A stretch of 64,000 nucleotides of DNA from an uncultured delta proteobacterium (lineage in GTDB: Bacteria; Desulfobacterota; Binatia; Binatales; Binataceae): contig CAVZGB010000015.1 in the NCBI GenBank assembly GCA_963774665.1, positions 68,823 to 132,822 on the forward strand. The letters run 5' to 3'. The position numbers were made by a program, and so were the translations under genes. Each line of letters starts with the position of its first letter. The stretch's first letter is position 1. Under the pieces are notes generated by a model. It made no database searches. It was not told where the DNA came from and was given only the letters and a program-made list of their open reading frames with translations. Positions 1,080 to 17,356 of the stretch are shown piece by piece.

Positions 1080-1535
1080 ATGCCTTCTTCCGCCTCCTTG
1101 AAATCGCCGCAGACTTTTCGCCGCAATACCCAGCAGCGTCGTCAGATATGCGACGTGTTCGAGCGCAACGATCGCCCCCTGGCCGCCGACGAAGTCTTGC
1201 AGCTCGCCCAGCAGAAGATGGCGGGACTTGGAATTGCGACCGTCTATCGAACGATAAAGGCTCTCACCGGCGAAGGCTGGCTGGTCTCAGTGGAAGTGCC
1301 GGGCGAGCCGCCGCGCTACGAGATTCGCGGCAAGGTCCATCATCACCACTTTCACTGCCTGAATTGCCGCCGGATGTTCGAGCTCGAGGGATGCCTCGAG
1401 CAACTGGGCAAAATGATTCCGCCGAGCTTTCGCGTGGTCGATCACGTCGTGCTCATTTACGGATTGTGCTCGAGCTGCGCTCGCGCCGGTAAAACGCCGT
1501 CCGTACGCGGCAAACGCAAAGCCCCCAAATCCTGA
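1080..1535 (+). CDS. Fur-family metal-responsive transcriptional regulator (Fur/Zur/Nur type)
   Basis: The C-terminal half has a HHHHFHC...C metal-site pattern, a dimerisation region and CxxC (LCSSC), typical of the Fur family. The start was taken at internal Met 32 of the track ORF (ATG at 1080). The upstream extension is Arg-rich and unlikely to be real. Confidence 0.8.
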   Translation: MPSSASLKSPQTFRRNTQQRRQICDVFERNDRPLAADEVLQLAQQKMAGLGIATVYRTIKALTGEGWLVSVEVPGEPPRYEIRGKVHHHHFHCLNCRRMFELEGCLEQLGKMIPPSFRVVDHVVLIYGLCSSCARAGKTPSVRGKRKAPKS

Positions 1536-1584
1536 TTCCTCGATCCGACGCTCGCATCGCAGCGCCTGCTCATCGGACGGCTTT

Positions 1585-1615
1585 CCCTATATAGCATAGG
1601 GGGTATACTATGGGG
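1585..1615 (+). promoter_or_regulatory. candidate RcnR/CsoR-type operator: G-tract-flanked AT-rich inverted repeats (ccctatatagcatagggggtatactatgggg)
   Basis: Lies 15-45 nt upstream of the RcnR-like start. Known RcnR/CsoR operators are G/C-tract plus AT-rich palindromes of the TACT-G6-N-AGTA type. This site contains ccctat/ataggg and gtatac palindromes with G5 and G4 tracts. Confidence 0.35.
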
Positions 1616-1631
1616 AAATTCGGGAGGCGAC

Positions 1632-1910
1632 ATGAGTCACACCATCAAGGAAAAAACCAAACTACTGAACAGGGTAAGGCGTATCCGCGGTCAAATCGAG
1701 GCATTGGAGCGGACCCTCGAAGAGGAAAAGGGATGCTCCGACGTGCTTCACCTGGCAGTCGCGGCGCGCGGCGCGATCAACAGCCTGGTGGCGGAAGTCA
1801 TCGAGGATCACATCCGGGTTCACGTCGTCGATCCCGCACGTGAACGCAATTCCGCCAGATCCCGAGGCGCGGAAGAGTTGATCGACATTGTTCAGGCGTA
1901 TCTGAAATGA
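1632..1910 (+). CDS. RcnR/CsoR-family metal-sensing transcriptional repressor (RcnR-like H-C-H-H fingerprint)
   Basis: 92 aa. The N-terminal MSHT (His3), Cys35 (KGCSDV) and His60/His64 (EDHIRVH) match the RcnR W-X-Y-Z fingerprint. The DUF156 fold is recognisable throughout. Its 3' end overlaps the downstream ATPase start (ATGA). Confidence 0.85.
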   Translation: MSHTIKEKTKLLNRVRRIRGQIEALERTLEEEKGCSDVLHLAVAARGAINSLVAEVIEDHIRVHVVDPARERNSARSRGAEELIDIVQAYLK

Positions 1911-3907
1911 GCGGGGGAGTTCGCGCTATGAATCAGCCGCAAGTTATTGAAAATCCGAAATCAAACTCGCAAGAACATGCCGACGCCGAGTCCGCGATCG
2001 TCGAAGATAGCGCCGAGAGTGCCATCAGCTGGATTGAGATTCTGCGGATCGGCCTGGTCGCACTGTGCGCGATAGCTGTGTGGTTCCGCGTCTGGGAGCC
2101 GTTCCCGCGGATTAGTCTCATCGGCTTGGCCGGCGTCATGATCGGCGGCTGGCCAATCTTCAAAGAGGCAATCGAGAACATCGCCGCGCGCCGGATGACG
2201 ATGGAACTCTCGATGTCGCTGGCGCTGCTGGCCGCCGCGGCGATTTCCGAGTTCTTCACCGCGCTCATCATCACCTTGTTCGTGCTGATCGCCGAAATAC
2301 TCGAGCACTTGACCGTTTCGCGCGGCCGTCGGGCGATTCGCGACTTGCTCGACTTTCTGCCGCGCTCCGTGACCATCCGCGGTGCCGATGGCGCCCGCGA
2401 GGTCTCAGCCGATGAATTGCGTGTGGGCGATCGCGTCCTGGTCAATCCCGGCGGCCTGGTGCCGGTCGACGGTTTCGTCATCACCGGTCACTCATTCGTC
2501 GATCAGTCGCGAATCACCGGCGAGTCGATGCCGGTCGAGAAGCTGCCGAATTCGATCGTGTTCGCGGGGACCATCAACCAGTCAGGTGCGCTGGAAATCA
2601 GAGCCGATCGAGTCGGCCGCGACTCGAGCTTCGGCAAGATAATCGAGGCGGTCGAGAGCGCCGAGCATTCGCGCGCACCGGTGCAGCGCCTCGCAGATCA
2701 AGCCGCCGGCTACCTGGTTTATTTCGCATTGTTCTCGGCGGCGATCACATTCCTTCTGACGCGCGATATCCGTTCGACGATCTCCGTCGTTATCGTCGCC
2801 GGCGCATGCGGAATCGCCGCCGGCACGCCTCTCGCGATTCTCGGTGGTATCGGTCGCGCCGCACGGCTCGGCGCAATCATCAAAGGCGGCCTGTACCTCG
2901 AGACTCTTGGACGCGTGAACACTGTAGTGCTCGACAAAACTGGCACGCTCACGTTTGGCCGCATGGAGGTGCAGTCGGTTGCTCCCGTCGCGGGGCTTCC
3001 CGAAGCAGACGTGGTTGAAGCTGCGGCGTCCGCCGAAATGCGCTCGGAACATCCGCTCGGCAAAGCGATCGTCGCCTACGCCTCGAGCAGGGGCTACTCG
3101 CTGAAAGAACCCGAGCAGTTTGACTACGCGCCCGGGAAAGGCATCACGTCAGTGATCAACGGCTCGACCGTAATCGTGGGCAATCGCGCCCTGATGGCCG
3201 ATCATCGAGTCGACGTCCCGGATAAATTCGCCACGACCGCAAACCCGTCGTCACGGCTGATGGTCGCGCGCGACGGACGATTTCTCGGCAGCGTCGCGAT
3301 CGCCGATATCGTGCGTCCCGAGGCACGCAGCGCCATCGAGTCGTTCTGCACCATGGGCATGCGCACCTTTTTACTAACCGGAGATACCGGCGAGGTCGCC
3401 AAGTCCGTCGCCGATCAACTCGGCATCAGTGACGTCGAAGCTGAACTATTGCCCGACGCGAAGTTCGACAGAGTCAAACAATTGGTCGCGAGCGGCCGGG
3501 TCGTCGCGATGGTTGGTGATGGGATCAACGACGCTCCCGCACTGGCGCAAGCAAGCGTGGGGGTCGCGATGGGCTCGGGCACCGACGTCGCGCGCGAGAC
3601 CTCCGACGTCGTGCTGCTTGGCAACGATCTGGCCAAGTTCGCGGAGACGGTGCGAATAGCGCGATGGACTCGACGGGTTATCAGGCAGAACTTCGCAGGC
3701 ACCATCGTAGTAGACCTCGTCGGCATCGCGATGGCCGCTTCCGGGCTGCTCCATCCCGCTCTGGCAGCGTTAATCCACGTCACATCCGAGATGACCTTCA
3801 TCCTTAACTCAGCTCGTCTTCTGCCACGCCGCGAACAACCGAAAAAGATACTTTCGGCTGAATCACCTATCGTCGGTGCTCGCGCCGGGACTGTTGCATC
3901 ACGTTGA
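1907..3907 (+). CDS. P-type (P1B-like) cation-translocating ATPase lacking an N-terminal HMA domain and lacking the canonical CPx membrane motif
   Basis: 666 aa with DKTGTLT, TGD and GDGINDAP motifs. The TM region carries VVIVAGACGIAAGTPLA where CPC/SPC/CPH normally sits. Its start overlaps the RcnR-like stop, suggesting translational coupling. Confidence 0.9.
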   Translation: MSGGVRAMNQPQVIENPKSNSQEHADAESAIVEDSAESAISWIEILRIGLVALCAIAVWFRVWEPFPRISLIGLAGVMIGGWPIFKEAIENIAARRMTMELSMSLALLAAAAISEFFTALIITLFVLIAEILEHLTVSRGRRAIRDLLDFLPRSVTIRGADGAREVSADELRVGDRVLVNPGGLVPVDGFVITGHSFVDQSRITGESMPVEKLPNSIVFAGTINQSGALEIRADRVGRDSSFGKIIEAVESAEHSRAPVQRLADQAAGYLVYFALFSAAITFLLTRDIRSTISVVIVAGACGIAAGTPLAILGGIGRAARLGAIIKGGLYLETLGRVNTVVLDKTGTLTFGRMEVQSVAPVAGLPEADVVEAAASAEMRSEHPLGKAIVAYASSRGYSLKEPEQFDYAPGKGITSVINGSTVIVGNRALMADHRVDVPDKFATTANPSSRLMVARDGRFLGSVAIADIVRPEARSAIESFCTMGMRTFLLTGDTGEVAKSVADQLGISDVEAELLPDAKFDRVKQLVASGRVVAMVGDGINDAPALAQASVGVAMGSGTDVARETSDVVLLGNDLAKFAETVRIARWTRRVIRQNFAGTIVVDLVGIAMAASGLLHPALAALIHVTSEMTFILNSARLLPRREQPKKILSAESPIVGARAGTVASR

Positions 3908-3928
3908 TTATTAACTATAGTTAAGTAC

Positions 3929-4693
3929 ATGACGACGACCAATCAGAGCTGGGACCCCGACGGATACGCACGCAACGCCCGCTTCGTCTCCGACCTCGGC
4001 GCGCCGGTGGTCGAGCTGCTCGCGCCGCAGGTGGGCGAGCGAATCCTCGACCTCGGATGCGGTGACGGTGCGCTGACGATCAAGCTCGCCGCCATGGGCT
4101 GCGACGTGGTCGGCGTCGACGCGAGCGCGCCCCAGATCGAAGCTGCCCGACGCCTCGGTCTCGACGCGCGTGTCGCCGAGGGCGAGCGCCTTGCCTTCGA
4201 TGCCGAGTTCGACGCCGTCTTCAGCAACGCCGCTATCCATTGGATGAAACCGCCTGACGACGTGATCGCCGGCGTATGGCGCGCGCTCCGTCCCGGCGGC
4301 CGCTTCGTCGGCGAGTTCGGCGGCCACGGATGCGTCGAAACGATCAAGCGTGCACTGATCGACGCGCTCCGGCGCCGCGGCATCGATGGTGACGCGCTCA
4401 ATCCCTGGTATTTCCCGACCGTCGAGGATTACTCTGCGCGGCTCGCGCGCCGCGGGTTCGCCATCAGGTATATCGCATTGATTCCCCGCCCGACTCCGCT
4501 GCCGACCGAAATCAACGGATGGCTCGAAACTTTCGCGCAAAGCTTCATGGCGCCGCTGGCGGACGGCGATCGGTCCGATTTTATCGACGAGGTGCGCGAA
4601 GCATTGCGGCCTAATCTCTGCGATGCCAACGGCGGCAAATGGTTCGCCGACTACGTTCGCCTGCGATTCGCCGCCGACAAGCCGCGTGACTGA
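3929..4693 (+). CDS. class I SAM-dependent methyltransferase (trans-aconitate methyltransferase-like)
   Basis: Motif I ILDLGCGDGALT plus a downstream acidic motif. 254 aa. Confidence 0.8.
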   Translation: MTTTNQSWDPDGYARNARFVSDLGAPVVELLAPQVGERILDLGCGDGALTIKLAAMGCDVVGVDASAPQIEAARRLGLDARVAEGERLAFDAEFDAVFSNAAIHWMKPPDDVIAGVWRALRPGGRFVGEFGGHGCVETIKRALIDALRRRGIDGDALNPWYFPTVEDYSARLARRGFAIRYIALIPRPTPLPTEINGWLETFAQSFMAPLADGDRSDFIDEVREALRPNLCDANGGKWFADYVRLRFAADKPRD

Positions 4694-4746
4694 CAGTTGG
4701 AGCGTTTGAGTTCCCTCGCGTCCAGCGGCAGTATTCCTCGGGCGAG

Positions 4747-5490
4747 ATGAGTATTTTTCGGGAATTAACAGAAGGACTCCCGCGACAGGCACCCGGCTCC
4801 GCCGCGGCAACGCTGCGCGCGCTCGGCCTGGTCCGCGGCCTGCCAACGAGTCCGCGAATCCTCGACGTCGGATGCGGTCCCGGCGCGCAGACTATTGAGC
4901 TCGCGCGCGCGACCGGCGGATGGATCGTCGCACTCGATATCCGCCAGCGCTTCCTCGACGAACTGACCGAACGCGCCGACGCAGCGGGAATCCTGCCACA
5001 GGTGACGACGGTCAACACCTCGATGTTCGACATGGATTTCGAAGACGGGTCATTCGATCTGATCTGGTCCGAAGGCGCCATCTATATCCAGGGATTCGCC
5101 GATGGTCTGACAGCATGGCACCGCTTCCTCAAGCCTGGAGGATGGCTAGCAGTATCCGAACTGACCTGGCTGGTGCCCAATCCGCCGCCTGAAGCCGCCG
5201 AATATTGGGCGCGGAACTATCCCGGCATGGGCTCGATCGAGCGCAACTGCCAGATCGTCGCGGAAGCCGGTTACGTGAGCATGGACGGTTTCGTGCTCCC
5301 CGAGCAGGACTGGTGGAAAAACTACTACGAGCCGGCCGAGCGCCGGGTCGAGGAGCTGCGGGAAAAGTACGCCGAGGATCGCGATGTGCTCGCAACTCTC
5401 GACGAGACGAGCCGCGAGCACGATCTCTTCCGCGCCTACCACGACTCCTACGGCTACGTCTTCTACGTAATGCGCAAACCCCTCGTGTGA
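4747..5490 (+). CDS. class I SAM-dependent methyltransferase
   Basis: ILDVGCGPGAQT glycine-rich SAM-binding motif. 247 aa. Confidence 0.8.
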   Translation: MSIFRELTEGLPRQAPGSAAATLRALGLVRGLPTSPRILDVGCGPGAQTIELARATGGWIVALDIRQRFLDELTERADAAGILPQVTTVNTSMFDMDFEDGSFDLIWSEGAIYIQGFADGLTAWHRFLKPGGWLAVSELTWLVPNPPPEAAEYWARNYPGMGSIERNCQIVAEAGYVSMDGFVLPEQDWWKNYYEPAERRVEELREKYAEDRDVLATLDETSREHDLFRAYHDSYGYVFYVMRKPLV

Positions 5491-5496
5491 AAATCC

Positions 5497-5534
5497 GGTT
5501 CCCCTTCCCTCGAGGGAAGGGGTTAGGGGTTAGG
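5497..5534. repeat. REP-like extragenic palindrome (family copy 1): ggttccccttccc-tcgag-gggaagggg-ttaggggttagg
   Basis: Perfect 9-bp stem immediately after the methyltransferase stop. It shares the tail motif t(t/c)a(g/a)ggt(t/g)agggt with copies at about 6838, 17258, 18413 and 36696. Confidence 0.6.
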
Positions 5535-5608
5535 TTCCTCGCTTTCATTTCCCCCCAATCTGGGTTACCTGTTGCCATACAAATCATTAAGACCTCGCGA
5601 GGATCGAA

Positions 5609-6799
5609 ATGGACTTTTCGCTGACCCCCAAGACCGAACAGTTGCGCAAGCGCGTCTCCGACTTCATGGACCAGTATGTCTTCCCCATCGAAAAAGATGT
5701 TCAGCGCGCGATGGGCGAGAGCGGCAATACTGAGCCGCAATCGCTGAAAGACGTCCGCAAAAAAGCCAAGGCCGAAGGCCTGTGGAACCTCTTCCTGCCC
5801 GACGAAAAATACGGCGCCGGCCTCAAGAACTACGAATACGCTCCGCTGTGCGAGCTGATGGGCCGCAGCCCGATCGGCGCGCGCGCGTTCAACTGCATGG
5901 CGCCCGACACCGGCAACATGGAAATCCTGGCCGAGTTCGGTACGCCGGATCAGAAAAAGCAGTGGCTGCAGAAATGTCTCGACGGCGAGATTCGCACCTG
6001 CTTCTCGATGACCGAGCCTGACACTCCGGGCTCCGATCCCACCCAGCTCAAGACCCGCGCGGTTCGCGACGGCGACAACTACGTGATCAACGGTCACAAG
6101 TGGTTCACCTCGAATGCGATCGGATCGGCCTTCGCGATCGCGATGGTCGTGACCGACCCCGAAGCGGAACCGCATCGCCGCGCCAGCCAGATAATCGTTC
6201 CGACCGACACCCCCGGATTCAACCTGATTCGTCCCGTGCCCGTGATGGGCCATACCGGCGGCGGCGGGCATTGCGAAATTATTTATAAAGATTGCCGCGT
6301 GCCGGTTACCAACCTGCTCGGCGAGGAAGGCGGCGGCTTCGCAATCTCGCAGGCACGCCTCGGTCCGGGACGCATCCACCATTGCATGCGCACGATCGGA
6401 ATCGCGGAACGCGCGCTCGAGCTGATGTGCAAGCGGGCGAGCACGCGCTTCACCCACGGCAGCTTTCTCGCCGACAAGTCGAACATCCAGGAATGGATCG
6501 CCAACTCGCGCATCGAGATCGATTCGTGCCGCCTGATGGTCATGCACGCGGCGTGGAAAATGGACACCGTGGGCAAGCGCGACTCGCGCAACGAGATCGC
6601 AATGATCAAAGTGATGTGCGCGAACATGGTGATGGTCGTGCTCGATCGCGCAATCCAGGTGTTCGGCGCGGCCGGCGTCAGCGACGACTTCCCGCTCGCG
6701 CGGATGTGGCGCGACAGCCGCGCACTTCGAATCGCCGACGGCCCCGACGAAGTGCATCGCATGACGATCGCGCGCCGCGAACTGCGCAAGTACAAGTGA
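5609..6799 (+). CDS. acyl-CoA dehydrogenase (ACAD10/ACAD11-type C-terminal domain family)
   Basis: 396 aa with typical ACAD blocks (FSMTEPDTPGSD, GHKWFTSNA, C-terminal QVFGAAGVSDDFPLARMWRD). An APH-like kinase gene follows it, as in the eukaryotic ACAD10/11 fusions. Confidence 0.9.
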   Translation: MDFSLTPKTEQLRKRVSDFMDQYVFPIEKDVQRAMGESGNTEPQSLKDVRKKAKAEGLWNLFLPDEKYGAGLKNYEYAPLCELMGRSPIGARAFNCMAPDTGNMEILAEFGTPDQKKQWLQKCLDGEIRTCFSMTEPDTPGSDPTQLKTRAVRDGDNYVINGHKWFTSNAIGSAFAIAMVVTDPEAEPHRRASQIIVPTDTPGFNLIRPVPVMGHTGGGGHCEIIYKDCRVPVTNLLGEEGGGFAISQARLGPGRIHHCMRTIGIAERALELMCKRASTRFTHGSFLADKSNIQEWIANSRIEIDSCRLMVMHAAWKMDTVGKRDSRNEIAMIKVMCANMVMVVLDRAIQVFGAAGVSDDFPLARMWRDSRALRIADGPDEVHRMTIARRELRKYK

Positions 6800-6837
6800 C
6801 CTTGAGGCAGACGCCGCATTGACGGTCTAATCCTGAT

Positions 6838-6872
6838 TGTTCCCTTCCCTCGCGGAAGGGATCTGGGGTTGG
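6838..6872. repeat. REP-like extragenic palindrome (family copy 2)
   Basis: cccttccc-tcgc-gggaaggg stem-loop followed by atctggggttgg. Lies between the ACAD stop and the phosphotransferase start. Confidence 0.55.
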
Positions 6873-6884
6873 CTGCATCGACGC

Positions 6885-7984
6885 ATGGCTGAACCGATAT
6901 CGATCTCGCCGTCGAATTCGGCGACGTCCGCGACGAGGAGCAACTCGACTGGAGCAAGCTCGTCGCGTATCTGCGCGAGAAACAACTGCCCGGCGCCGAC
7001 GCCCCAATGACCGTCAAGCAGTTCCGCGGCGGCTCGTCGAATCTCACCTACCTGCTGTGCTTCGGTGACCGCGAATGGGTGATGCGCCGGCCGCCGTTCG
7101 GCCCGCTGCCCGTGGGCGGTCACGACATGGGCCGCGAGTACCGCGTGCTCTCGCGCCTGTGGGAAGTCTTCAAGCCGGCGCCGCGCGGGATGCTCTACAG
7201 CGACGACGTATCGATCGTCGGCGCGCCATTCTTCGTGATGGAACGTCGCACCGGCATCGTAATCAAGAACCGCCAGCCGCTGCCGCTCGAGCTCGGCAAC
7301 GATCCTGCGATGTTCCGTGCGATGTCAGAAGGATTCATCGACACGCTCGCCGATTTGCACGGCGTCGACTACGCGTCGATCGGACTCGCGTCGCTCGGCA
7401 AGCCCGACGGATTCCTGAAGCGCCAGATAACCGGCTGGATGGGCCGATGGGAGAAAGCCAAGACGCGCGAAGTGCCGCTGATGGAAAAACTCGGCACATG
7501 GTTTCTCGACAACATGCCGGTGTCGCCGCCGCCCGTGCTCGTGCATAACGATTTCTACCTGCACAACGTCATGGTCGGTGCGGTTAATCACGGCGAGATA
7601 GTCGGCGTCTTCGACTGGGAGATGTCGACCATCGGCGATCCGTTGGTCGATCTCGGCATCGTGATGAACTACTGGCGCGACAAGAACGACCCGCCCGAGC
7701 TGCTGGGCACCTCACAGGGAGAAGCGCACACGCTGCGCCCCGGCTTCCTGACCCGCGACGAACTGCTGCATCGTTACGCGACACGCACCGGCCGCGACGT
7801 AAGCGCGATGCCGTATTACTGGGCCTGGGCGCACTGGAAAACCGCGACGGTGGTCGAGCAAATCTACGTCCGCTACGTCCGCGGCCAAACCACTGATCCG
7901 CGCTTCGCGCTGATGGGCCCAATGGCCCCAGCCCTAGCCCTCGCCGCCGCCCAAGTAGCCTCGCGACTAGGGTTCAGCGTTTAA
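6885..7984 (+). CDS. phosphotransferase-family protein (APH-like, ACAD10/11 N-terminal kinase-domain type), with an apparent 1-nt frameshift just after the start codon
   Basis: Track ORF 7007..7984 (325 aa) has APH motifs (GGSSNLTY, HNDFYLHNVM, DWEMSTIGDP). The conserved N-terminus EFGDVRDEEQLDWSKLVAYLREKQLPGADAP continues upstream in the same frame with no start codon. An ATG with MAEP lies at about 6885 in another frame, implying an indel near 6895-6905. Confidence 0.75.
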
Positions 7985-7990
7985 GCAGTA

Positions 7991-8455
7991 ATGGAACAAA
8001 TGAACCCGAACTCTGCAAATACGAAAAAAGGCCGAGATTTTCAGTTACGAGTACAGCAGGCTCTGGAGAGGATTGTCGGCGTCGAATTCGATCTAGAAGT
8101 CAAGATTCCGATTGGTGATCCACCGAAGGCTCGCCCGTTCGATTTGGCTTCCAGGAGTAGAGCGATCGTGGCCGAATGCAAGGCGTATGCGTGGACTGAG
8201 AGTGGAAATGTGCCTTCCGCAAAAATCACCACGCTCAGGGAGGCCGCCAACTATCTTCTTCAACTTCCTGCGAGCACGACCACGTTAATTGTGATGGACC
8301 GTCATTGTCATCCGAGAAGGGGAGAGGCGCTCGCTAACTACTTCGTCCGACTAAATTCGCATCTTCTTGGGCGAGTTTCGCTGCTGGAGTTGTCGAGTGA
8401 CGACACCCTCCGATTAATTCACGGCAAATTTCCCTCCTCAGGAAGTGAAACTTGA
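7991..8455 (+). CDS. small PD-(D/E)xK-like (restriction-endonuclease-fold) protein, candidate nuclease; hypothetical
   Basis: 154 aa encoded in the roughly 50% GC islet. It contains a hFD...(11 aa)...ExK pattern (RPFDLASRSRAIVAECKAY) preceded by acidic residues (EFDLEVK). No other family recognised. Confidence 0.45.
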   Translation: MEQMNPNSANTKKGRDFQLRVQQALERIVGVEFDLEVKIPIGDPPKARPFDLASRSRAIVAECKAYAWTESGNVPSAKITTLREAANYLLQLPASTTTLIVMDRHCHPRRGEALANYFVRLNSHLLGRVSLLELSSDDTLRLIHGKFPSSGSET

Positions 8456-8524
8456 CGGCTACGCTGTCACTGGAACTCGTTTCTGATTGCTTTTGCGAGG
8501 CTTAGTGAGCTCCAGCAATGAAAC

Positions 8525-9841
8525 TCATGCCTCAATCAAAAAGCTGCTGATCGCTCTTGACCAGTCTCTCTGCGAACTGAGATTTCGAGAAAGATCCGCT
8601 CGCTCAATCCAACTGGTTTTGACGTATCGATCAGGCCGTTCTCGAATTGTCTTGTTTTCGAAAGCTGCGACATTGGCCGGACCGGAGAATGACACCTGGA
8701 ATACTACGCCAACATGGCGAGCCGCCCGTTTATCTTCCGAGCTATGGACAATCCCAATTGGATGTAGATGGGGCAAATCTTCCAACGAGAGTTCTTCATG
8801 TAGTTCTCTTCGGAGACCTGTCAGGACGCTCTCCCACTTCGACTTGGCTTGATCCCTATCTTGCTTTCTTACGTGTCCCCCGGCCCAATTTCCGAAGGCT
8901 TCGTGAAGCGACTCGCCTGGTTCGAACCGAACGTTCGTCAGAAAGCGATTGCCATTTCGAATGATACAGACGGGGACGACCTGCAGGAGATCGTCCGAAG
9001 TCTCCGCAATCGATCTGGCCACGTACGTGCCTTTGCTATTTACCAGCTTTGAGAGCGTTTTCCACTTCGGCGTAATCATCTTCTTATCAGAAAGCTTGAT
9101 CTGTCCTTCGAGAGATTTACGCGGAATACAGAGAACCTCCTCGTCTGCGAATTTGCCAAAGCACCTCAGAAGGGTCTTTGCGATATCTGTGATCGTTTTC
9201 ATTTCCGGACCTCGACTGTTCTCGATAACTGTAATCGATTTGAAATCTGCTTTATATCTACGGGCCGCCTCCAAGTAGTGCCGGCGCAACTGGGTTAAAG
9301 TACCAATGTTCATTATGGCTCCATGGCGGAGCGTGATTTGCCTAGCGTACTCTCTGTCGATGGAGGTTTTTGCGTCGCAATGCATGACGAAAACCATATC
9401 GATCAGCCCGCGCCACCGTGGCGTCAATACAAAGCTGCGAAACCCTTCCGCTTCAGCTTTGGATACTCGGTGCGTTTTTTCCTGCCAGTCGATCCAAACT
9501 AGCCCGTCGAAAAGCCCTCTATCCAAGATAAGAACATCGAGTTTTTCGTCTTCGAGAGCTTCAATTATTCCGTTGAGCGTAGCGCATGTCACCCACGTGT
9601 TGAAGAAAGCGGTGCCCTTGTCCAATAACGGAGCAACCGAAGCGCGCTCCTGGAAAGTGCGGACCATAACGCCATTCCTTTTGAAGAACTGGTGTATTGC
9701 ACCAATCGTGGTCGTCTTTCCAGACTTCGGAGTGCCAGCAAACTCGATAATAAAAGGTCGGCGCTTGTCGGACAATCTTGGACGAATTAGGGAGATCTGT
9801 TTTTCGAGACGCGCGCGAACCTGCTGCATCGATCCATCCAT
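8525..9841 (-). CDS. fusion protein: N-terminal P-loop nucleotide/nucleoside-kinase-like domain (Walker A AGTPKSGKTT; hhhhDRG Walker B/DRx) plus C-terminal Nudix-like hydrolase domain (divergent Nudix box ...GGHV...E-x7-RELHEELSL)
   Basis: The track ORF is 8525..10150, but its first 103 codons are antisense to the high-GC HigA-like gene. Met104/Met108 (MDGSMQQ) at 9841 is preceded by ggggATGG and marks the drop to about 50% GC, so it is the more likely start. The DRG motif after a hydrophobic strand resembles dNK/TMPK-type kinases. The REUxEE core of the Nudix box is present, with a long insertion between GG and the Glu. Confidence 0.6.
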   Translation of the reverse strand: MDGSMQQVRARLEKQISLIRPRLSDKRRPFIIEFAGTPKSGKTTTIGAIHQFFKRNGVMVRTFQERASVAPLLDKGTAFFNTWVTCATLNGIIEALEDEKLDVLILDRGLFDGLVWIDWQEKTHRVSKAEAEGFRSFVLTPRWRGLIDMVFVMHCDAKTSIDREYARQITLRHGAIMNIGTLTQLRRHYLEAARRYKADFKSITVIENSRGPEMKTITDIAKTLLRCFGKFADEEVLCIPRKSLEGQIKLSDKKMITPKWKTLSKLVNSKGTYVARSIAETSDDLLQVVPVCIIRNGNRFLTNVRFEPGESLHEAFGNWAGGHVRKQDRDQAKSKWESVLTGLRRELHEELSLEDLPHLHPIGIVHSSEDKRAARHVGVVFQVSFSGPANVAAFENKTIRERPDRYVKTSWIERADLSRNLSSQRDWSRAISSFLIEA

Positions 9842-9963
9842 CCCCAATACCCCTATGTTTGCCGCCCTGTGGCGGCGCGACACCGGCGCATCAGGAAGCG
9901 GTCCGTTCCAATCTTCGACAAACGATAAGCGGCATAATAGTTTGGAAGAAGAGGCAAGCAAAG

Positions 9964-10327
9964 ATGGTTCGCTGAAACAAAATACCGCCTGCTTCACCCC
10001 GGGGTGGTCCTCTACGAGGACTTCATCGTGCCGACCGGCATCAGCATCCACCGACTTGCGATGGATCTGCGTGTGCCGGCCAATCGCATCGCGGAAATCG
10101 TGAAGGGCGAGCGCGCCATCTCGGCTGACACCGCACTTCGCCTCGCTCATTATCTCGGTACGTCTGCGGAATTCTGGCTTGGCTTGCAGAGCGATTGCGA
10201 TCTCGAAAAAGCCAGGGACGAGCTGGCGCCAAAAATTGAGTGCGAGGTTCAGCCACCAAACGTGCGGCGTAGTTCGCGTTCATCCGGCTCTTTTCAGCGA
10301 GCGGCAAGTACGCTATCCAAGGTATAA
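9964..10327 (+). CDS. higA: HigA-family (VapI-type) XRE antitoxin-like HTH protein, orphan, with an apparent frameshift right after the ATG
   Basis: The LLHPGVVLYEDF...GERAISADTALRLAHYLGTSAEFWLGLQSDCDL region matches the HigA antitoxin family (HPGEIL, HTH, FWLNLQ). The in-frame region upstream has no ATG. An SD (gaagagg) plus ATG at 9964 is in the -1 frame, and one extra G after the ATG would give MFAETKYRLLHPG. The track ORF starts at a GTG at 10004. Confidence 0.7.
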
Positions 10328-10368
10328 AGGCGGGTATAATCTTAGCCCGATCTGGAGGTTTTCCAACC

Positions 10369-11238
10369 TTGCACGCTATCAATTACGAAGCTCCAAGCAC
10401 GCTCGACCAGGCCGTCAGTATCCTCAAAACCCACGGCGAGAATGCGCGCCCGCTCTGCGGTGGCACCGATATCCTCATCCAGCTCCGCGCCGGAGTCCGC
10501 CGCACCGAGCACCTGGTTGACGTAAAGAAAATCAAAGAGCTGCAGACTCTCTCCTTCGATGCGAAGAAGGGGTTACGTCTCGGCGCCGCCGTCCCCTGCA
10601 TCGATATCAGCGAGAGCGACGTGATGCGCCGACACTACCCCGGCCTGACCGAGGCGGCTCATCTCATCGGCTCGCTGCAAATTCAGAATCGCGCCTCGGT
10701 CGGCGGCAATCTGTGCAACGGATCGCCGGCCGCGGACACGACGCCTGCCCTTATTGCCCTCGGTGCGCGCGCCCGAATCGTCGGCCCGAGCGGCGAGCGC
10801 GAAGTTCCCGTCGAGTCGTTCGTCGTATCTCCCGGACGCACTGTGCTCAAGCCCGGCGAGCTGCTGGTCGAATTGCTGATTCCCGCGCCCGCGCCGCATT
10901 CGAGCGACGCGTATCTGCGCTTCATCCCGCGCAACGAGATGGATATCGCGGTCGTCGGCGTCGGCGCGTCGGTCACTCTCGACGGCGACAAGGTGAAGGC
11001 GGCGCGCATCGGTCTTGGCGCAGTTGCGGCGACTCCGTTGCTCGCGACCAAAGCCGCCGACGCGCTCGTCGGCAAGAAATTCGACGACGCCTCACTCGAG
11101 GCCGCCGGACGCGCGGCGAGCGAGACCTGCAAACCAATCGACGACATGCGCGGGACAGCGGAATTTCGGCTGCACATCGCCGGCGTGCTCACCCGCCGCG
11201 CGCTGACAATCGCCGCCGAACGCGCGAAAAAGGCCTGA
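10369..11238 (+). CDS. molybdenum hydroxylase FAD-binding subunit (CoxM/CutM-like, xanthine dehydrogenase family medium subunit)
   Basis: 289 aa with LCGGTDILIQL, a FAD-binding fold and a CO-dehydrogenase flavoprotein C-terminal domain. TTG start with ggagg upstream. Confidence 0.85.
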   Translation: MHAINYEAPSTLDQAVSILKTHGENARPLCGGTDILIQLRAGVRRTEHLVDVKKIKELQTLSFDAKKGLRLGAAVPCIDISESDVMRRHYPGLTEAAHLIGSLQIQNRASVGGNLCNGSPAADTTPALIALGARARIVGPSGEREVPVESFVVSPGRTVLKPGELLVELLIPAPAPHSSDAYLRFIPRNEMDIAVVGVGASVTLDGDKVKAARIGLGAVAATPLLATKAADALVGKKFDDASLEAAGRAASETCKPIDDMRGTAEFRLHIAGVLTRRALTIAAERAKKA

Positions 11239-11270
11239 ATCACAGCAATCAAAAAATACGGCATATAGTT

Positions 11271-11771
11271 ATGAAAAAAACCCTGGTAGAAGCGACGATC
11301 AACGGCGAAAACGTCGAGTTCCTGTGCGAACCGCGACAAAGTCTGCTCGAAACCCTGCGCGACGTGCTCGAGCTGACCGGCTCTAAAGAGGGATGCCTGA
11401 CCGGCGATTGCGGCGCATGCACCGTTATAGTCGATGGCCGCGCGGTCGACTCGTGCCTGATGCTCGGCGTCGAGGCGCAAGGCAAGAACATCTCGACCGT
11501 CGAGGGACTCGCCACGCAGGGCGTACTTAGCGTCTTGCAAAACAAATTTCTCGAGCACGCCAGCCTGCAATGCGGCATCTGCACTCCGGGCTTTTTGATT
11601 TCGGCGAAATCACTGCTCGATCGCAATCCGAAACCGACCGAGCCCGAAGTTCGCTACGCGCTGGCCGGGAATCTTTGCCGATGCACCGGTTACGACAAAA
11701 TTGTAAAAGCAGTGCTCGACGCTGCTGCGGATATTCGCTCTCAGGGCGAAGGCAAAGTCGCCGCACGTTAG
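11271..11771 (+). CDS. (2Fe-2S)-binding small subunit of a molybdenum hydroxylase (CoxS/CutS-like)
   Basis: MKKTLVEATINGENVEF...C-x4-C-x2-C and QCGICTPGF...CRCTGY are the two [2Fe-2S] motifs. The long track ORF 10713..11771 is a spurious upstream extension. Confidence 0.9.
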   Translation: MKKTLVEATINGENVEFLCEPRQSLLETLRDVLELTGSKEGCLTGDCGACTVIVDGRAVDSCLMLGVEAQGKNISTVEGLATQGVLSVLQNKFLEHASLQCGICTPGFLISAKSLLDRNPKPTEPEVRYALAGNLCRCTGYDKIVKAVLDAAADIRSQGEGKVAAR

Positions 11772-11811
11772 AGCGTAGCAACGACGTGAGATTCGAGAGG
11801 TAAAAAAAGCC

Positions 11812-14101
11812 ATGGCGGCATCAACCACGACAGACAATTTCAAAGTTATCGGCACGCGTCCGATTCGGCACGACGGCGTTGATAAGGTCACCGGCCGCGC
11901 CAAGTACGGCGCTGACTACGCGTTCCCCGGAATGTTGCACGGCAAAGTGCTGCGCAGCCCGCACGCTCACGCGAATATCAAATCGATCAATATCGACAAG
12001 GCGCTTAAGCTCCCCGGCGTCAAGGCTATCGTCACCGGAAAGGATCTGCCGAAGGCCGAGAACAAGCTCGAGCAGGCCGGCGAAATGGTCATCAATCCGA
12101 TGTACCTGTCGATGAACATCCTCGCGCACGACAAGGTCCTGTATGACGGCCATGCGATCGCCGCCGTCGCCGCGACCAGCCCGCATATCGCCGAGGAAGC
12201 TTTGCGGCTGATCGAAGTCGAATACGAAGTGTTGCCGCCTGTCATGACTGTCGATGTCGCGACCAAGCCTGGCGCGCCGATTCTGCTGAAGGACCTGCGC
12301 AACAAGGAAGAGGGCGACAAGCCGACCAACGTCGCGCAGCACTACCAGTTCAAACGCGGCGACGTCGAAGCAGGATTCAAGGGCGCCGACTACGTGATCG
12401 AGCGCGAGTTCAATACCGCGATGGTCCACCAGGGATACATCGAGCCGCACAATGCCGTCGGCATCTACAACTCCGATGGACAGGCGACGATTTACTGCTC
12501 GACGCAGGGCGCCTTCGACGTGCGCTCGCTGAGCGCGCAGGTACTCGGGATGCCGGTCGGCCATATCAAAGTCGTGCCGGCTGAGATCGGCGGCGGCTTC
12601 GGCGGCAAGACTACCATCTATCTCGAGCCGCTCTCCGTCCTGCTGTCGAAGAAGACCGGCGCCCCGGTCAAGCTGGTGATGTCGCGCTCGGAAGTTCTCC
12701 GTGCGAGCGGCCCGACCTCGGGCTCCAAGATCAAAGTGAAGATGGGCGCGAGCAAGGACGGCAAACTCGTCGCCGCCGAAATCTGGATGGCCTACGAGGC
12801 TGGCGCGTTCCCCGGATCGCCGGTAGGCGCGGGCGCGATGTGCATCATCGCTCCTTACACCATCGAGAATTTCGTAATCGACGCGTACGACGTTGTCGTC
12901 AATCGCCCCAAGACCGCGGCCTATCGCGCGCCGGGCGCAACCAACGCCGCGTTCGCCTCCGAGACGATCATCGACGAGCTCGCCGAAAAGTGCGGAATCG
13001 ATCCGATCGATTTCCGCCTCAAGAACGCGGTCAAAGAGGGCGATGCGCAGGTTGTCGGTCCTCCGTTCAAGCGCATCGGATTGATCCAGACGCTCGAAGG
13101 GAATCAAGAACAGCCCGCACTACAAGTCCAAAGTGACCGGCAAGTTCCGTGGACGCGGCGTCGCATCGGGCTTCTGGTTCAACGCCGGGATGCAATCGTC
13201 GGCCACGGTGAATATCCATGCCGACGGAACCGCCAGCGTCGTGACCGGCTCGCCGGATATCGGCGGCTCGCGCGCTTCGATGGCGATGATCACCGCCGAA
13301 GTTCTCGGACTTCCGGTGACGGACGTCCGCCCGATCACCGCCGACACCGATTCGATCGGGCATACCGACGTCACTGGCGGCAGCCGCGTGACCTTCGCAA
13401 CCGGCATGGCGGTGTACGAGGCAGCCAAGGACGCCGAGCGCCAGCTGATCGAGCGCGCCGCCAAGGTCTGGGAGAAAAAGCCCGACGAGGTGGAATTCCG
13501 CGACGGCATGCTTCACGCGAAAGGCAACGGCGTGCCGCCGATGTCGCTCAAGCAGCTCGCGCCCCGCTTTGCGCGCACGGGCGGTCCGATCACCGGTCGT
13601 GCGAGCGTGAACGCCCGCGGCGTAGGTCCCGGGTTCGCGACGACGCTCGTCGACGTCGAGGTCGATCCCGATACCGGCAAAGTACAAATCCTGCGATGCA
13701 CCGTCGCGCAAGATGCGGGCAAGGCGATTCATCCGAGCTACGTCGAAGGACAGATGCAGGGCGGCACCGCGCAGGGACTCGGATGGGCGCTCAACGAGGA
13801 ATACTTTTACGACGACAAGGGCACGCTGCGTAACTCCGGATTTCTCGACTACCGTATGCCCACCTGCCTCGACCTGCCGATGATCGAAACCGTCGTGGTC
13901 GAGGAAGCAAACCCCGGTCATCCGCTGGGCGTGCGCGGCGTCGGCGAGGTATCGATCGTGCCGCCGGTCGCAGCGGTAGCCAACGCTATCTATCGTGCGG
14001 TCGGCGTCAGGATGACGGAGACCCCGATGTCGCCGCCGAAGCTGCTGAAAGCGATGCTGAAGCATCGTGACTCGACAAAACATTCCGCTGCGGCGGATTG
14101 A
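11812..14101 (+). CDS. molybdopterin-binding large subunit of a xanthine dehydrogenase/CO-dehydrogenase-family enzyme (form II-like AYRAPG motif, not bona fide CO dehydrogenase), with an apparent frameshift near 13095-13110
   Basis: N-terminal 430 aa in frame 1 (track ORF 11812..) and C-terminal 322 aa in frame 2 (13133..14101). Both are CoxL/XdhA-like. Frame 2 already reads ...NSPHYKSKVTGKFRGRGVASGFWFN upstream of 13133, so one indel near gaagggaatcaag explains the split. Confidence 0.8.
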
Positions 14102-14155
14102 TCAGGAGTGATTGATTTGGGGGCGGGCTAATGCTCGCCCCCATTCATTTTTGCA

Positions 14156-14425
14156 ATGCCGACGGTCGTCGTCCCTGCTCTGCTACGCAAGTTCACTGGT
14201 GGCATCGAGCGCGTTGACGTCCCGGGAAAATCGATTCGCGAGCTGGTTCGGAATCTTGGCGAGCAGTTTCCGGGACTTGACCAGCAGTTACTCCAGGACG
14301 GCGACATCCGTCCGTCGATCGCAGTTTCCATCGACGGCGAGATCGCGACCGGCGGCGTACTCGACGCCGTCAGCGAAAACAGCGAGGTACATTTCATTCC
14401 CGCGCTTGGCGGCGGCGAGGGCTGA
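14156..14425 (+). CDS. MoaD/ThiS-family ubiquitin-like sulfur-carrier protein
   Basis: 89 aa with a beta-grasp-like composition, ending ...ALGGGEG. It immediately follows the Mo-hydroxylase operon. Confidence 0.55.
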   Translation: MPTVVVPALLRKFTGGIERVDVPGKSIRELVRNLGEQFPGLDQQLLQDGDIRPSIAVSIDGEIATGGVLDAVSENSEVHFIPALGGGEG

Positions 14426-14499
14426 CCGCTCAGAAAATTGCATTCAAAAAAGGCGAAATTCGTTCCGGATGTGACAAATAGTTCTGAGCCTGACCGATC

Positions 14500-14527
14500 T
14501 TGCAACTCACCGGCAGTTTAGTACAAT
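14500..14527 (+). promoter_or_regulatory. near-consensus sigma70-like promoter (TTGCAA, 16-nt spacer, TACAAT) with no downstream CDS on this strand
   Basis: Direct reading. It is followed by a GC-rich region that can be folded and a ccggggtttgcccccctttt hairpin plus T-tract. Confidence 0.3.
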
Positions 14528-14807
14528 GCGGGTTGCTGGCCGGGGTTTGCCCCCCTTTTCCCGGTTGGCTACGGGCCGGGTAGAGCAATCTGCCTGGCCC
14601 TTATCATTCATTAAAAAACATTAAGAAACGAATCGCTGACCGACTCGCGCGAGCCAGTCATACTTGATGCAGAGTGTCAGATGGCTGGTCAGATCATTTG
14701 ATCTGACCTGACGGATAGAACCTCCGCGGCGTAGCACCCATCAGTAGTGCTAATTCATCGCGGCGGGGAACGTGCTTCGTACTCAGGTTGAAACGGGCGC
14801 GCGCCGA

Positions 14808-15207
14808 CTAGCTCATGAAGACTTCGCGCACGTGGTTCACGTCGTTGTACTCGCGGACCTGCGCGATCTTGTCGCCCTTGAACAGGAAGTAGAAATGATA
14901 GCGGTTGGCGTATTTCTTCCCGTTACCGGCGGTCGTATCCGATTCGGCCTGGATCGCGACATGGGGACCCTCGGCGATGGTCGAATGAAACTTCATGTTC
15001 AGCCCGTTGGGGAACATCGCCTTTAGCAGTCTTTGGCGTCGTTCTTCAGTACGCATCTTTGCCGCGCATCGGCGCGACGCCAGGCAGCCGGCCCATCATC
15101 TCGAACTCGAAATCGTCGGTGATCAAATCTTCGAAAACCTTCGGGTCGGGCTTCTCGAAATTCTTGAGAAAAGTGAGCGCGCGTTCCTTCTGTTGTTCCA
15201 GGTTCAT
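14808..15207 (-). CDS. NTF2-like/SnoaL-like small protein (ketosteroid-isomerase fold), with an apparent frameshift near 15050
   Basis: N-terminal part MNLEQQKERALTFLKNFE...GRLPGVAPMRGKDAY (frame of 15046..15246) and C-terminal part ...KAMFPNGLNMKFHS...YANRYHFYFLFKGDKIAQVREYNDV (14808..15056) read as one protein only across a 1-nt shift. SD ggaga lies upstream of ATG 15207. Confidence 0.55.
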
Positions 15208-15282
15208 TTCCAGATCTCCAATGACGAGCCGGCGGCCGCGCGCCACAACGCACGCACCGCCGGGAATGACGCGAATCTTCGG

Positions 15283-15744
15283 TTACTGCTTGCGACGGAT
15301 CACGAGGACCGAACACGGCGCGTTGCGCACAATTTTCTCGGTCGTTCCACCGAGCAGTGCATGCTCGATACCGCTGCGTCCGTGCGTCGCCATCACGATC
15401 AGATCGATGCCCTGTTCCTTGGCGTAGTCGACCAGTTTCTGAACCGGATGACCGATCACCGCGAAAGTGAATACTTTATTCGAATCGCCGAACTCGTCCT
15501 TCTTGAGGTGCGCGAGTTCCTCTTCCGCCTGCTCGAGCATCGCGGCTTCGCGTGCGAGCTCGCGGCTCTGTTCGGCGCTGGTCGCCAACGGCAGCGGGAT
15601 GAAAGTGTGATGCGGCGCGATTACGTGCACCAGGTGGACTTCGGCGCCGACGTCCTTCGCCAGCTCCATCGCCGAGCGCATCGCTTCCATCGAGTGCGGT
15701 GAAAAGTCGATTGGCGCAAGAATTTTCTTCACGTTCTGAATCAT
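15283..15744 (-). CDS. universal stress protein (UspA family)
   Basis: 153 aa with ILAPIDFSPHS ... GRSG...G(S/T) ATP-binding motif and VLVI at the C-terminus. Confidence 0.85.
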   Translation of the reverse strand: MIQNVKKILAPIDFSPHSMEAMRSAMELAKDVGAEVHLVHVIAPHHTFIPLPLATSAEQSRELAREAAMLEQAEEELAHLKKDEFGDSNKVFTFAVIGHPVQKLVDYAKEQGIDLIVMATHGRSGIEHALLGGTTEKIVRNAPCSVLVIRRKQ

Positions 15745-15901
15745 AGCGACCTCCGGGTCAGAAACTCTGCAATTACCACGCCCCTCGCCGCCTCTGCAAA
15801 CCGCCCCAAGTTAGAATGTAGCGTTCCGCGCCACAGATCGCGACCTTTGTCGACGCTGGGCGTCGCTCAGTTGATGCCGCCTCTTGCTTGAGCCTGGTAT
15901 C

Positions 15902-16570
15902 TCAATAGTAGGCGATGCCGATGACTTGCTTGATCGTTTCGGGTTGCTTGAGCACTCGCAGCATAAGATCGGCGACATCGGCGCGTGAAATGAAAACGCC
16001 ACCCCGCAGATTCTGCCCGTATGCCGTCCGGTAGCTTCCGCTGCGTGGCTTGTCAGTCAGCCGTGGTGGTCGCACGATGGTCCAGTCAAGGCCGCTGTCA
16101 CGAACGACGTCCTCCATCAGAGCGAGATCGGCATAGAGCTTCTTGAGCGCGGCCTTTATAAGCGGACTGAACAGGTTCCGCATGAAGAAGCCGTCGCCCG
16201 GATCGCTCTTGGGCGGTGTTGGACGGCCGGGCGAAGGCACCGTCCCTAAAGGCGCCGCGCTGACCACGACGATTCGCCGCACCCCCGTCGCTTTCATCGC
16301 TTTGACTATGGACCGGGTGCCGTCCGCAGCGATTCCCGCGTCGGACTTTAATCGTTGACCAAGGCCGGAGAGTACGGCGTCGGCTCCCGCCACCGAGGAC
16401 TCGAGCACCGCCGGATCCGGAGCTGCCAGGTCGGCCGCGACAATGCGTACCTCGCGGGACAGCTTGTTCGGGTTTCGGACGACTGCGGTGACGTCATGAC
16501 CGGCGGCGACGGCCTGCTCGAGCGCCTGCCGGCCGATGCCCCCGGTCGCTGCGAATATCGTCAGTTTCAT
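15902..16570 (-). CDS. NAD(P)H-binding oxidoreductase (NmrA/BVR-B-like atypical SDR)
   Basis: MKLTIFAATGGIGRQ Rossmann motif. Start chosen at Met20 (ggagctgggcATG). 222 aa. Confidence 0.8.
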   Translation of the reverse strand: MKLTIFAATGGIGRQALEQAVAAGHDVTAVVRNPNKLSREVRIVAADLAAPDPAVLESSVAGADAVLSGLGQRLKSDAGIAADGTRSIVKAMKATGVRRIVVVSAAPLGTVPSPGRPTPPKSDPGDGFFMRNLFSPLIKAALKKLYADLALMEDVVRDSGLDWTIVRPPRLTDKPRSGSYRTAYGQNLRGGVFISRADVADLMLRVLKQPETIKQVIGIAYY

Positions 16571-16632
16571 GCCCAGCTCCTTGATCAGATATGTTGTCTT
16601 CAGCATACGAGAATATATCGAAACCATATTAT

Positions 16633-17148
16633 ATGGAAATCAAATCATCTGTAAAATCATCTGCGAAATCATCTGATCGTCCGGAGACGGCGCGGCGTCG
16701 AAAACAATTGAACTTCGCCATCCGGCAATCGCTGCGCGAGCTGAGCATCCAACTGTCCGTGCTCAATCATCACGTGGGCGCCCACCTCGACCTCAAGGAC
16801 GTCGACCTCGCTTGCCTCGATCTCGTCGCTCGTCACGGTCCGCTAAGCCCGACCGCCCTTGCACGACGCGCCGGCCTGCACCCCGCCACCATGACCGGCA
16901 TCCTGGACCGACTGGAACGGGGAGGATGGGTGGGGCGCGGCCGCGATCCGTCCGACCGTCGCGCAGTTGTTGTTCGGGTTCTACGGCCCCGGATCGCGGA
17001 GCTGATGCGTCTTTACTCGGGAATGAATACCTCGATGGACGAGATCTGCGCTGGATATGGGGAAACCGAACTCGAACTGCTCGCCGACTTCCTCCACCGC
17101 ACCGCAAACGCCGGCCGCAGCGCGACCGACAAGTTGGTCGCCGAATAA
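16633..17148 (+). CDS. MarR-family transcriptional regulator
   Basis: Winged-HTH region LSPTALARRAGLHPATMTGILDRLERGGWVGRGRDPSDRRAV. Start at ATG 16633, downstream of the track start that overlaps the divergent gene. Confidence 0.8.
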   Translation: MEIKSSVKSSAKSSDRPETARRRKQLNFAIRQSLRELSIQLSVLNHHVGAHLDLKDVDLACLDLVARHGPLSPTALARRAGLHPATMTGILDRLERGGWVGRGRDPSDRRAVVVRVLRPRIAELMRLYSGMNTSMDEICAGYGETELELLADFLHRTANAGRSATDKLVAE

Positions 17149-17295: not shown

Positions 17296-17356
17296 TTCGC
17301 ATCGAGCGCAAATTCGGTTACACCCAGCTGCGCAGACGATAGGAACGGTGAACAAA

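Follow-up and report, generated by a model that had tools for sequence, protein, structure and literature searches.

An undescribed fusion of a thymidylate-kinase-like P-loop domain and a TM1382-type Nudix domain in a compositionally foreign islet of a Binatia genome

We characterized a gene for a two-domain protein in a 64,000-nucleotide stretch of DNA (hereafter the window) from an uncultured delta proteobacterium of the class Binatia (assembly GCA_963774665.1, contig CAVZGB010000015.1, positions 68,823–132,822 of the forward strand). The coding sequence lies on the minus strand at 8525–9841 (ATG at 9839–9841, stop codon at 8525–8527) and encodes 438 amino acids, in which a kinase-like P-loop domain precedes a Nudix domain (hereafter the kinase–Nudix protein). 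The ATG corresponds to Met104 of a longer open reading frame (8525–10150). An original prediction, made from the nucleotide letters without database searches, had proposed Met104 as the true start, and we reached the same conclusion because homologues align from residue 1 (the closest ones being 438–445 amino acids long) and a G-rich, Shine–Dalgarno-like run (GGGG/AGGGG) lies 5′ of this ATG. Translation from 9841 yields the 438-amino-acid protein with the motifs quoted in that prediction. Its description of the 103 upstream codons as antisense to higA was accurate for approximately 49 of them (10004–10150); the rest lie over a 162-bp divergent intergenic region. The ratio of nonsynonymous to synonymous substitution rates (dN/dS) was 0.05 against a 97%-identical orthologue (locus L001) and 0.05–0.07 against more distant members of the same clade, showing that the gene is under strong purifying selection. 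An AlphaFold2 model of the protein reached a predicted local distance difference test score (pLDDT) of 89.9 and a predicted template-modelling score (pTM) of 0.84. We confirm that the fusion of a kinase-like P-loop domain and a Nudix domain on one chain is real, and the structural interpretation in the original prediction was largely right.

The N-terminal domain (residues 1–228; 9158–9841, minus strand) has a thymidylate-kinase/deoxynucleoside-kinase fold, with the three-layer P-loop architecture of nucleoside monophosphate (NMP) kinases and their CORE, NMP-binding and LID regions. Its best matches were all NMP or nucleoside kinases, with PPK2 (14.9), NadR (13.9) and dephospho-CoA kinase (11.4) ranking lower, and its structural similarity to thymidylate kinase (TMPK) and deoxynucleoside kinase (dNK) exceeds that to NadR or NRK1. 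We assessed residue conservation in 79 kinase–Nudix proteins from four clades (approximately 30% identity) and used a smaller set of 47 members for the profile matches reported below. The Walker A motif recognized in the original prediction (FAGTPKSGKTT) reads G36-T-P-K-S-G-K-T43 (9713–9736, minus strand); G36, K39, G41 and K42 are invariant in 79/79 members and position 43 is always T or S. The likening of a DRGLFD segment to the DRx motif of deoxynucleoside monophosphate (dNMP) and dNK-type kinases was equally borne out: the segment, read from the sequence as D107-R108-G-L-F-D112 (9506–9523, minus strand), is the counterpart of the DR(Y/H/F) motif of TMPK and is conserved in essentially all 79 proteins (D107 is invariant in the family and R108 is present in 78/79), in the TMPK register as judged from a weak alignment. 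Together with these residues, E65, R66, P71, K75, N81, W83, G109, D112, R163, E164, G174 and M177 are invariant or nearly so. In the weak alignment (hhalign against human TMPK, E = 0.043), GTPKSGKTT falls opposite GVDRAGKST, FQERAS opposite FPERST, FNxW opposite ANRW and LDRGLFDGLVW opposite VDRYAFSGVAF.

The kinase half is a relative of Tmk by fold and no bona fide Tmk orthologue; NCBIfam TIGR00041 scores the window protein at 17.7 against a cut-off of 83.25. Among PHROGs families, phrog_761 ('thymidylate kinase') matches the N-terminal half and phrog_8902 (unknown function) the C-terminal half. A profile of the kinase half searched against Protein Data Bank (PDB) sequences gave matches mostly confined to the P-loop (FtsY and SRP54), and the domain therefore cannot be placed by sequence alone. 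Kinship with zeta toxins (PF06414) or polynucleotide kinases (T4 Pnk/Clp1 type), which the original prediction had raised, was rejected: neither occurs among the best 60 matches to the kinase half, the closest structural relatives are not polynucleotide 5′-kinases, and the resemblance does not extend beyond the P-loop NTPase/kinase superfamily and the Walker A motif. A housekeeping fusion of CoaE and a CoA pyrophosphatase, named in the same prediction as a case that would overturn it, is not supported either: CoaE is not the best kinase match, and the CoA-Nudix signature was not found upstream of the box.

The C-terminal module (residues 229–438; 8528–9157, minus strand) has the Nudix α/β/α sandwich fold and includes an N-terminal extension that carries E234, R276 and E280. 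The Nudix core proposed originally (GGHV...RELHEELSL) is upheld by this fold and by catalytic residues that do not vary across clades A, C and D. The GGHV motif begins at 8881, and the expanded Nudix box (8783–8878, minus strand) reads G322-x5-D328-x16-R345-E346-L-H-E349-E350-L-S-L353; compared with the canonical G-x5-E-x7-R-E-U-x-E-E-x-G-U, it has D328 in place of E, a spacer of 16 residues rather than 7, and S352 in place of the final G. The D328–R345 spacer is 12 residues long in clade A and 13 in TM1382 (Thermotoga maritima). Two details of the earlier description did not survive: the insertion does not lie between GG and the first acidic residue, because the G322-x5-D328 spacing is canonical and the extra residues fall between D328 and R345, and the Glu of WES, taken for the first Glu of the box, is not conserved. 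H323 is invariant in all four clades, as are R276, E280, R305, W319, H376 and W427 across the extension and the Nudix half; E234 is invariant in clades A, C and D, R325 in clades A and C only, and clade B alone has lost G322, D328, R345, E346, E349 and E350, each of which is invariant in the other three clades.

Searching the family profile against solved structures (hmmsearch) returned one strong match, TM1382 (PDB 3E57, 'putative Nudix hydrolase'; E = 9.8e-24). It spans the whole C-terminal module with its N-terminal extension (profile positions 229–383, chain residues 11–161), and the GGHVRxxD motif is common to both proteins. We accordingly assign the C-terminal half, by sequence comparison, to the TM1382-type Nudix subfamily; TM1382 provides a fold and a family rather than an activity, since its own function is unassigned. 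YmaB of Bacillus subtilis presumably belongs to the COG of TM1382 and to the TM1382 subfamily. A word-indexed search with the alignment of the C-terminal half retrieved little besides fragments of the fusion family itself, and none of the names was informative.

The window protein belongs to a sizeable family. An exhaustive search with the two-domain profile recovered 443 clusters (50% identity) at E ≤ 1e-30. Among the 150 best clusters, all but a few measure 430–475 amino acids and match both domains. Relatives are encoded in 239 stretches (one genome per GTDB species), and thus in at least 239 species, with a patchy host range that comprises Binatia-like 'delta proteobacterium' metagenome-assembled genomes (MAGs), Acidobacteriota, Verrucomicrobiota, Planctomycetota, Alpha-, Beta- and Gammaproteobacteria, Spirochaetia, SAR202, Nitrospinota and others. 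Automatic names assigned by JGI ('predicted NUDIX family phosphoesterase/thymidylate kinase') already recognize both halves. In the literature, we found no description of a direct fusion of a thymidylate-kinase-like domain with a TM1382-type Nudix domain, or of the kinase–Nudix family; the protein represents an undescribed domain fusion and a sizeable uncharacterized family, built from known kinds of enzyme. A scan of IMG/VR returned no more than two loci, both of which encode the kinase domain by itself, unaccompanied by a Nudix domain; on one of these contigs (L099, 6757–8687), an HD-domain gene that by eye resembles a (p)ppGpp hydrolase lies upstream of the stand-alone kinase domain.

Genomic context differs among the four clades. 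Clade B furnishes the best evidence on how the two domains are related in function: in 11/11 loci, the fused Nudix box lacks R345, E346, E349 and E350 with every kinase motif intact, and a separate Nudix gene (approximately 185 amino acids, GGH...RE..EE) overlaps or abuts the stop codon of the fusion gene. In L033, for example, the fused gene occupies 8001–9320 and the separate Nudix gene 9317–9874; the other clade B loci are L028, L031, L032, L035, L043, L044, L049, L050, L063 and L072. The dead fused Nudix domain thus looks to have been replaced by the neighbouring gene. Given that the fusion is kept in 443 clusters and that clade B pairs a dead box with an intact adjoining Nudix gene, the predicted kinase and Nudix activities are needed together.

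Clade A (54 loci, approximately 451 amino acids) includes nine loci in which the gene sits inside the nuo operon, between nuoG and nuoH in six Verrucomicrobiota and between nuoF and nuoG in three Burkholderiales, separated from its neighbours by gaps of 2–9 bp or overlapping them (9 bp and 2 bp in L093). The nuo-embedded members listed are L093 (10001–11353), L030, L037, L040, L041, L048, L079, L055, L057 and L064. Other clade A copies follow gyrB (in the order gyrB, family member, DUF2442, gyrA), recJ (in Spirochaetia), or genes for carbamoyl-phosphate synthase, GcvP, IcmF and others, and some lie upstream of genes for a RelA_SpoT synthetase, PPK1 or AbiEi_2. A RelA_SpoT small alarmone synthetase gene begins 21 bp downstream of the family member in L053 (9377–10102), and a PPK1 gene lies downstream in L071 (9380–11605). 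Clade C, to which the window belongs, comprises solitary genes at variable sites, after recA or beside a gyrA fragment as well as next to integrases, HTH_17, DUF3987 and a methyltransferase; a conserved partner gene for this clade was sought and rejected, because the neighbours differ at every non-syntenic locus. In clade D (five loci), the gene adjoins a potassium-channel gene. Core genes of DNA metabolism recur as neighbours in the family: gyrB and DUF2442–gyrA on either side of the family member (L014, 3573–10310), a gyrA C-terminal fragment together with a position upstream of gyrA (L006, 5426–11751), a position directly after recA (L095, 5801–8326) and positions immediately after recJ in three Spirochaetia (L077, L086 and L092).

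In 68/75 loci, the GC content of the kinase–Nudix gene falls short of that of its flanks by more than 5 points; the flanks themselves range from approximately 52% to 65% GC, and the mean deficit is approximately 10 points in every clade except B, in which it is 14. The nuo-embedded copies are likewise low, at 5–12 points under their flanks (for example, 0.51 against 0.63 in L055). Foreign composition persists even at the insertion common to related genomes. The chromosomal site of the window (acyl-CoA dehydrogenase, APH, the islet described below and CO-dehydrogenase-like genes) is also occupied in three other loci. L001 retains an intact copy, whereas that of L018 (5114–6155) is split over two frames and lacks the first 74 residues, and in L027 (8001–9303), no open frame longer than 114 amino acids is left. 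Part of the damage in L018 and L027 could be assembly error, since some of these genomes are long-read MAGs. On account of the patchy spread, the GC deficit, the variable neighbourhoods and the decayed copies at this site, we regard the gene as an accessory, horizontally mobile single-gene module; in the reading of its function that we prefer below, it is part of neither core metabolism nor a toxin–antitoxin pair.

In the window, the kinase–Nudix gene lies in a compositionally foreign islet of three genes (7991–10327; GC approximately 0.50, compared with approximately 0.62–0.66 in the flanks). GC content at third codon positions is 0.55 for the kinase–Nudix gene, 0.53 for a 154-amino-acid neighbour and 0.65 for a higA gene, compared with 0.78–0.82 for the flanking genes, and we therefore treat these three genes as one foreign islet, which looks like a small set of accessory or conflict-type genes. 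The convergent 154-amino-acid neighbour (7991–8455, plus strand) has a PD-(D/E)xK nuclease fold (D51, E62 and K64); it accompanies the kinase–Nudix gene only in the window and L001, and its homologues pair with PLD and restriction-endonuclease (REase)-like genes. The divergent HigA-family helix–turn–helix (HTH) gene (10004–10327, plus strand) has no HigB partner; its product matches TIGR02607 with 86 bits (cut-off 47.7, E = 1.1e-24). A small part of the 5′ end of this gene may be missing, given that the profile match begins at profile position 10 and a stop codon lies nine codons upstream of the GTG start. The islet may conceivably have truncated a higB gene; a Pfam search of 9778–9972 for a HigB remnant gave no match at E ≤ 10. 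Besides the window, HigA accompanies the kinase–Nudix gene in L001 and L027, which are syntenic with it, and in no other locus examined. A role for the kinase–Nudix protein as the toxin of HigA in a type II toxin–antitoxin pair was rejected, because higA is divergent rather than operonic and the pairing is not conserved with the family.

The 162-bp intergenic region between the kinase–Nudix gene and higA (9842–10003) is a presumed promoter region, in which a consensus scan detected no σ70-like promoter. A search of the islet boundaries for direct or inverted repeats, promoters and terminators gave chance-level matches only, and no tRNA genes were found in window positions 1–20000. Beyond the islet, a gene for a CO/xanthine-dehydrogenase-like molybdopterin subunit (11812–14098, plus strand) is frameshifted near 13097–13116—the 762-amino-acid orthologue in L001 matches frame 1 through its residue 435 and frame 2 from its residue 429 onwards—and reflects either a sequencing error or a pseudogene.

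As to function, the reading we prefer, which falls a little below an even chance, is that the kinase–Nudix protein is an active bifunctional enzyme that acts on small-molecule nucleotides and re-routes or edits a nucleotide pool. The TM1382-type Nudix half would act on a derivative of a nucleoside di- or triphosphate, cleaving its pyrophosphate bond to release an NMP, the likeliest reaction being conversion of a (deoxy)nucleoside triphosphate ((d)NTP) to (d)NMP and pyrophosphate. The thymidylate-kinase-like half would phosphorylate a (deoxy)nucleoside monophosphate with ATP, such that one nucleotide species would be broken down while an NMP is re-charged. Re-routing or editing of a pool is suggested because both activities are needed together. 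The two halves would have to differ in specificity, because a dNTP pyrophosphatase and a dNMP kinase working on the same nucleotide would form a futile cycle. Both domains would be catalytically active, as suggested by the conservation of K42, T/S43, E65, R66, D107, R108, R163 and E164, by that of R345, E346, E349 and E350 in three of the four clades, and by the agreement of the P-loop, ER(S/A) and DR(Y/G) registers with TMPK in the weak hhalign comparison.

Small molecules are favoured over nucleic acids as substrates because the best kinase matches are all NMP or nucleoside kinases and because of the precedent of YmaB, a protein of the Nudix superfamily encoded in the nrdI–nrdE–nrdF–ymaB operon of B. 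subtilis, for which preliminary dNTP pyrophosphohydrolase activity has been reported (PMC5960316). Two groups of compounds are candidates: dNTPs, suggested by YmaB, by the TMPK/dNK fold and by the proximity of gyr genes, recA and recJ, and NAD(H) or ADP-ribose, which the nuo copies, the similarity to AAA_28 and the precedent of NadR and NadM support. Editing of this kind could serve house-cleaning or salvage, or could act on nucleotide pools during conflict with phages. Its composition and context favour a mobile accessory gene, and tight embedding in essential operons together with the lack of a match to defence models leans away from a constitutively dangerous toxin.

Several observations weigh against the reading as a bifunctional enzyme on nucleotide pools. 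Pfam scores of the window protein stay below the gathering cut-offs for Thymidylate_kin (PF02223; 21.2 bits, cut-off 27), AAA_28 (PF13521; 21.3 bits, cut-off 27) and NUDIX (PF00293; 17.9 bits, cut-off 21.1), the last of which matches 33/47 members of the family at E ≤ 0.01. Sequence profiles prefer AAA_28, a family that includes the ribosylnicotinamide-kinase domain of NadR, over Thymidylate_kin (41/47 members at E ≤ 0.01, best E = 1.1e-7, compared with 11/47). The kinase LID region is poorly conserved except for R163-E164, the copies in the nuo operon favour NAD(H)-related substrates over dNTPs, and the reading presupposes two halves of differing specificity.

Of the alternatives, the one we take most seriously, although we consider it unlikely, is a single-gene anti-phage or conflict effector whose Nudix half would deplete dNTPs or a phage-specific modified dNTP and whose kinase would act as a sensor, regulator or partner activity, the outcome being abortive infection or blocked phage replication; the original prediction had considered the pairing of domains compatible with a toxin or defence effector. 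The gene is solitary, patchily distributed and approximately 10 GC points low in those 68 loci, a profile typical of defence genes, and in the window's clade it adjoins integrases, HTH_17, DUF3987 and a type II methyltransferase; the islet adds the PD-(D/E)xK nuclease-like gene and a lone HigA. Copies decaying at the same site in sister genomes would be expected of dispensable immunity genes, and insertions between core genes (nuo, gyrB/gyrA, recA and recJ) resemble hotspots flanked by core genes. However, PADLOC (PADLOC-DB v2.0, library of 2023) returned no match to the protein (best, mad8, E = 0.04, 11.4 bits), and tblastn searches of 50,697 phage and 72,556 plasmid records retrieved no homologue. 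Many copies lie in essential, constitutively expressed operons with gaps of 2–9 bp, a setting that would suit a toxic effector poorly; a conserved partner, sensor or antitoxin did not emerge, HigA being divergent and restricted to syntenic loci. Known defence genes are not systematically enriched among the annotated neighbours, and among ten neighbours from three clade C loci PADLOC flagged as relevant only the type II methyltransferase and a Csa3-like HTH protein (L096). Less probable still is NAD(H) or ADP-ribose maintenance tied to complex I, in which the Nudix half would convert ADP-ribose or damaged or excess NADH to AMP and the kinase would re-phosphorylate AMP or, in the manner of NadR, nicotinamide riboside. 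The nuo insertions of clade A, at two junctions and in two phyla, suggest such a link, and in known NAD enzymes both domain types are fused to an NMN adenylyltransferase (NadR combines it with a P-loop kinase, and NadM/NatV with a Nudix domain; PMC9503650, PMC13464706). Against this, 45/54 clade A loci and every clade C locus lie outside nuo, and the nuo copies are as foreign in composition as the others and may be insertions through recombination in conserved flanks, with no functional tie to complex I; moreover, the structure is closer to TMPK and dNK than to NadR and NRK1, and no NADH-pyrophosphatase or ADP-ribose-pyrophosphatase signature was seen in the sequence downstream of the Nudix box.

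Two further explanations concern the chemistry of the P-loop domain itself. It may be no kinase at all and may instead gate the Nudix hydrolase, as an NTPase with a nucleotide-sensing or regulatory role, which would leave the protein with a single chemistry; the weakly conserved LID and the sub-threshold matches to real kinases are consistent with this, and clade B retains a degenerate Nudix domain as a scaffold, evidence that domains of this family can have non-catalytic roles. We nevertheless think it improbable, because the invariant E65-R66 and D107-R108 are acceptor-binding residues of TMPK-type kinases and are hard to explain for a pure NTP switch. Remodelling of nucleic-acid 5′ ends, suggested in the original prediction, seems very improbable to us: here the P-loop domain would phosphorylate 5′-OH ends in the manner of polynucleotide kinase and the Nudix domain would turn 5′-triphosphate RNA into 5′-monophosphate RNA in the manner of RppH. 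The general logic of a kinase joined to a pyrophosphohydrolase speaks for it, as does a LigT/2′-5′ RNA ligase gene 2 kb away at one family locus, yet the ER(A/S) and DRG motifs correspond to NMP-binding motifs of TMPK (in the weak hhalign comparison) and RNA-repair partners such as Hen1 or RtcB are not recurrent in the neighbourhoods examined.

Returning to the reading as a bifunctional nucleotide-pool enzyme, a bolder version, which we offer as speculation and rate as rather doubtful, is that of a self-contained 'nucleotide-pool editing' module that spreads between core genes (nuoF/G/H, gyrB/gyrA, recA and recJ), either as an anti-phage destroyer of (modified) dNTPs or as a repair enzyme of complex I directed against ADP-ribose or damaged NADH. 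If this were true, the fusion of a TMPK-like kinase and a TM1382-type Nudix domain would represent a new class of bifunctional enzyme. Identification of the substrate would assign a function to TM1382-type Nudix proteins, and would show whether bacteria carry a mobile nucleotide-pool editing enzyme and whether its role is metabolic (NAD or dNTP hygiene) or immune. For the window itself the gain is more limited: the gene model is now correct, the domains are annotated and three genes are recognized as a foreign islet.

Comparison with characterized enzymes sets the kinase–Nudix protein apart in each half. Thymidylate kinases (5X7J, 4DWJ and human TMPK) and deoxynucleoside kinases (1OT3 and 2OCP) share 11–20% identity with the window protein and differ in the LID, and R76 of human TMPK has no conserved counterpart in the family; dTMP specificity of the window protein is thus far without support. 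These kinases, moreover, are not themselves fused to a Nudix domain. In NadR, whose kinase domain is of the AAA_28 family, and in NadM, the partner is an NMN adenylyltransferase domain, which is absent from the kinase–Nudix protein. The closest known relative of the Nudix half, TM1382 (a structural-genomics deposit), is a stand-alone protein of 211 amino acids that lacks a kinase domain, and YmaB likewise stands alone, whereas in the kinase–Nudix protein the kinase joins the Nudix domain directly.

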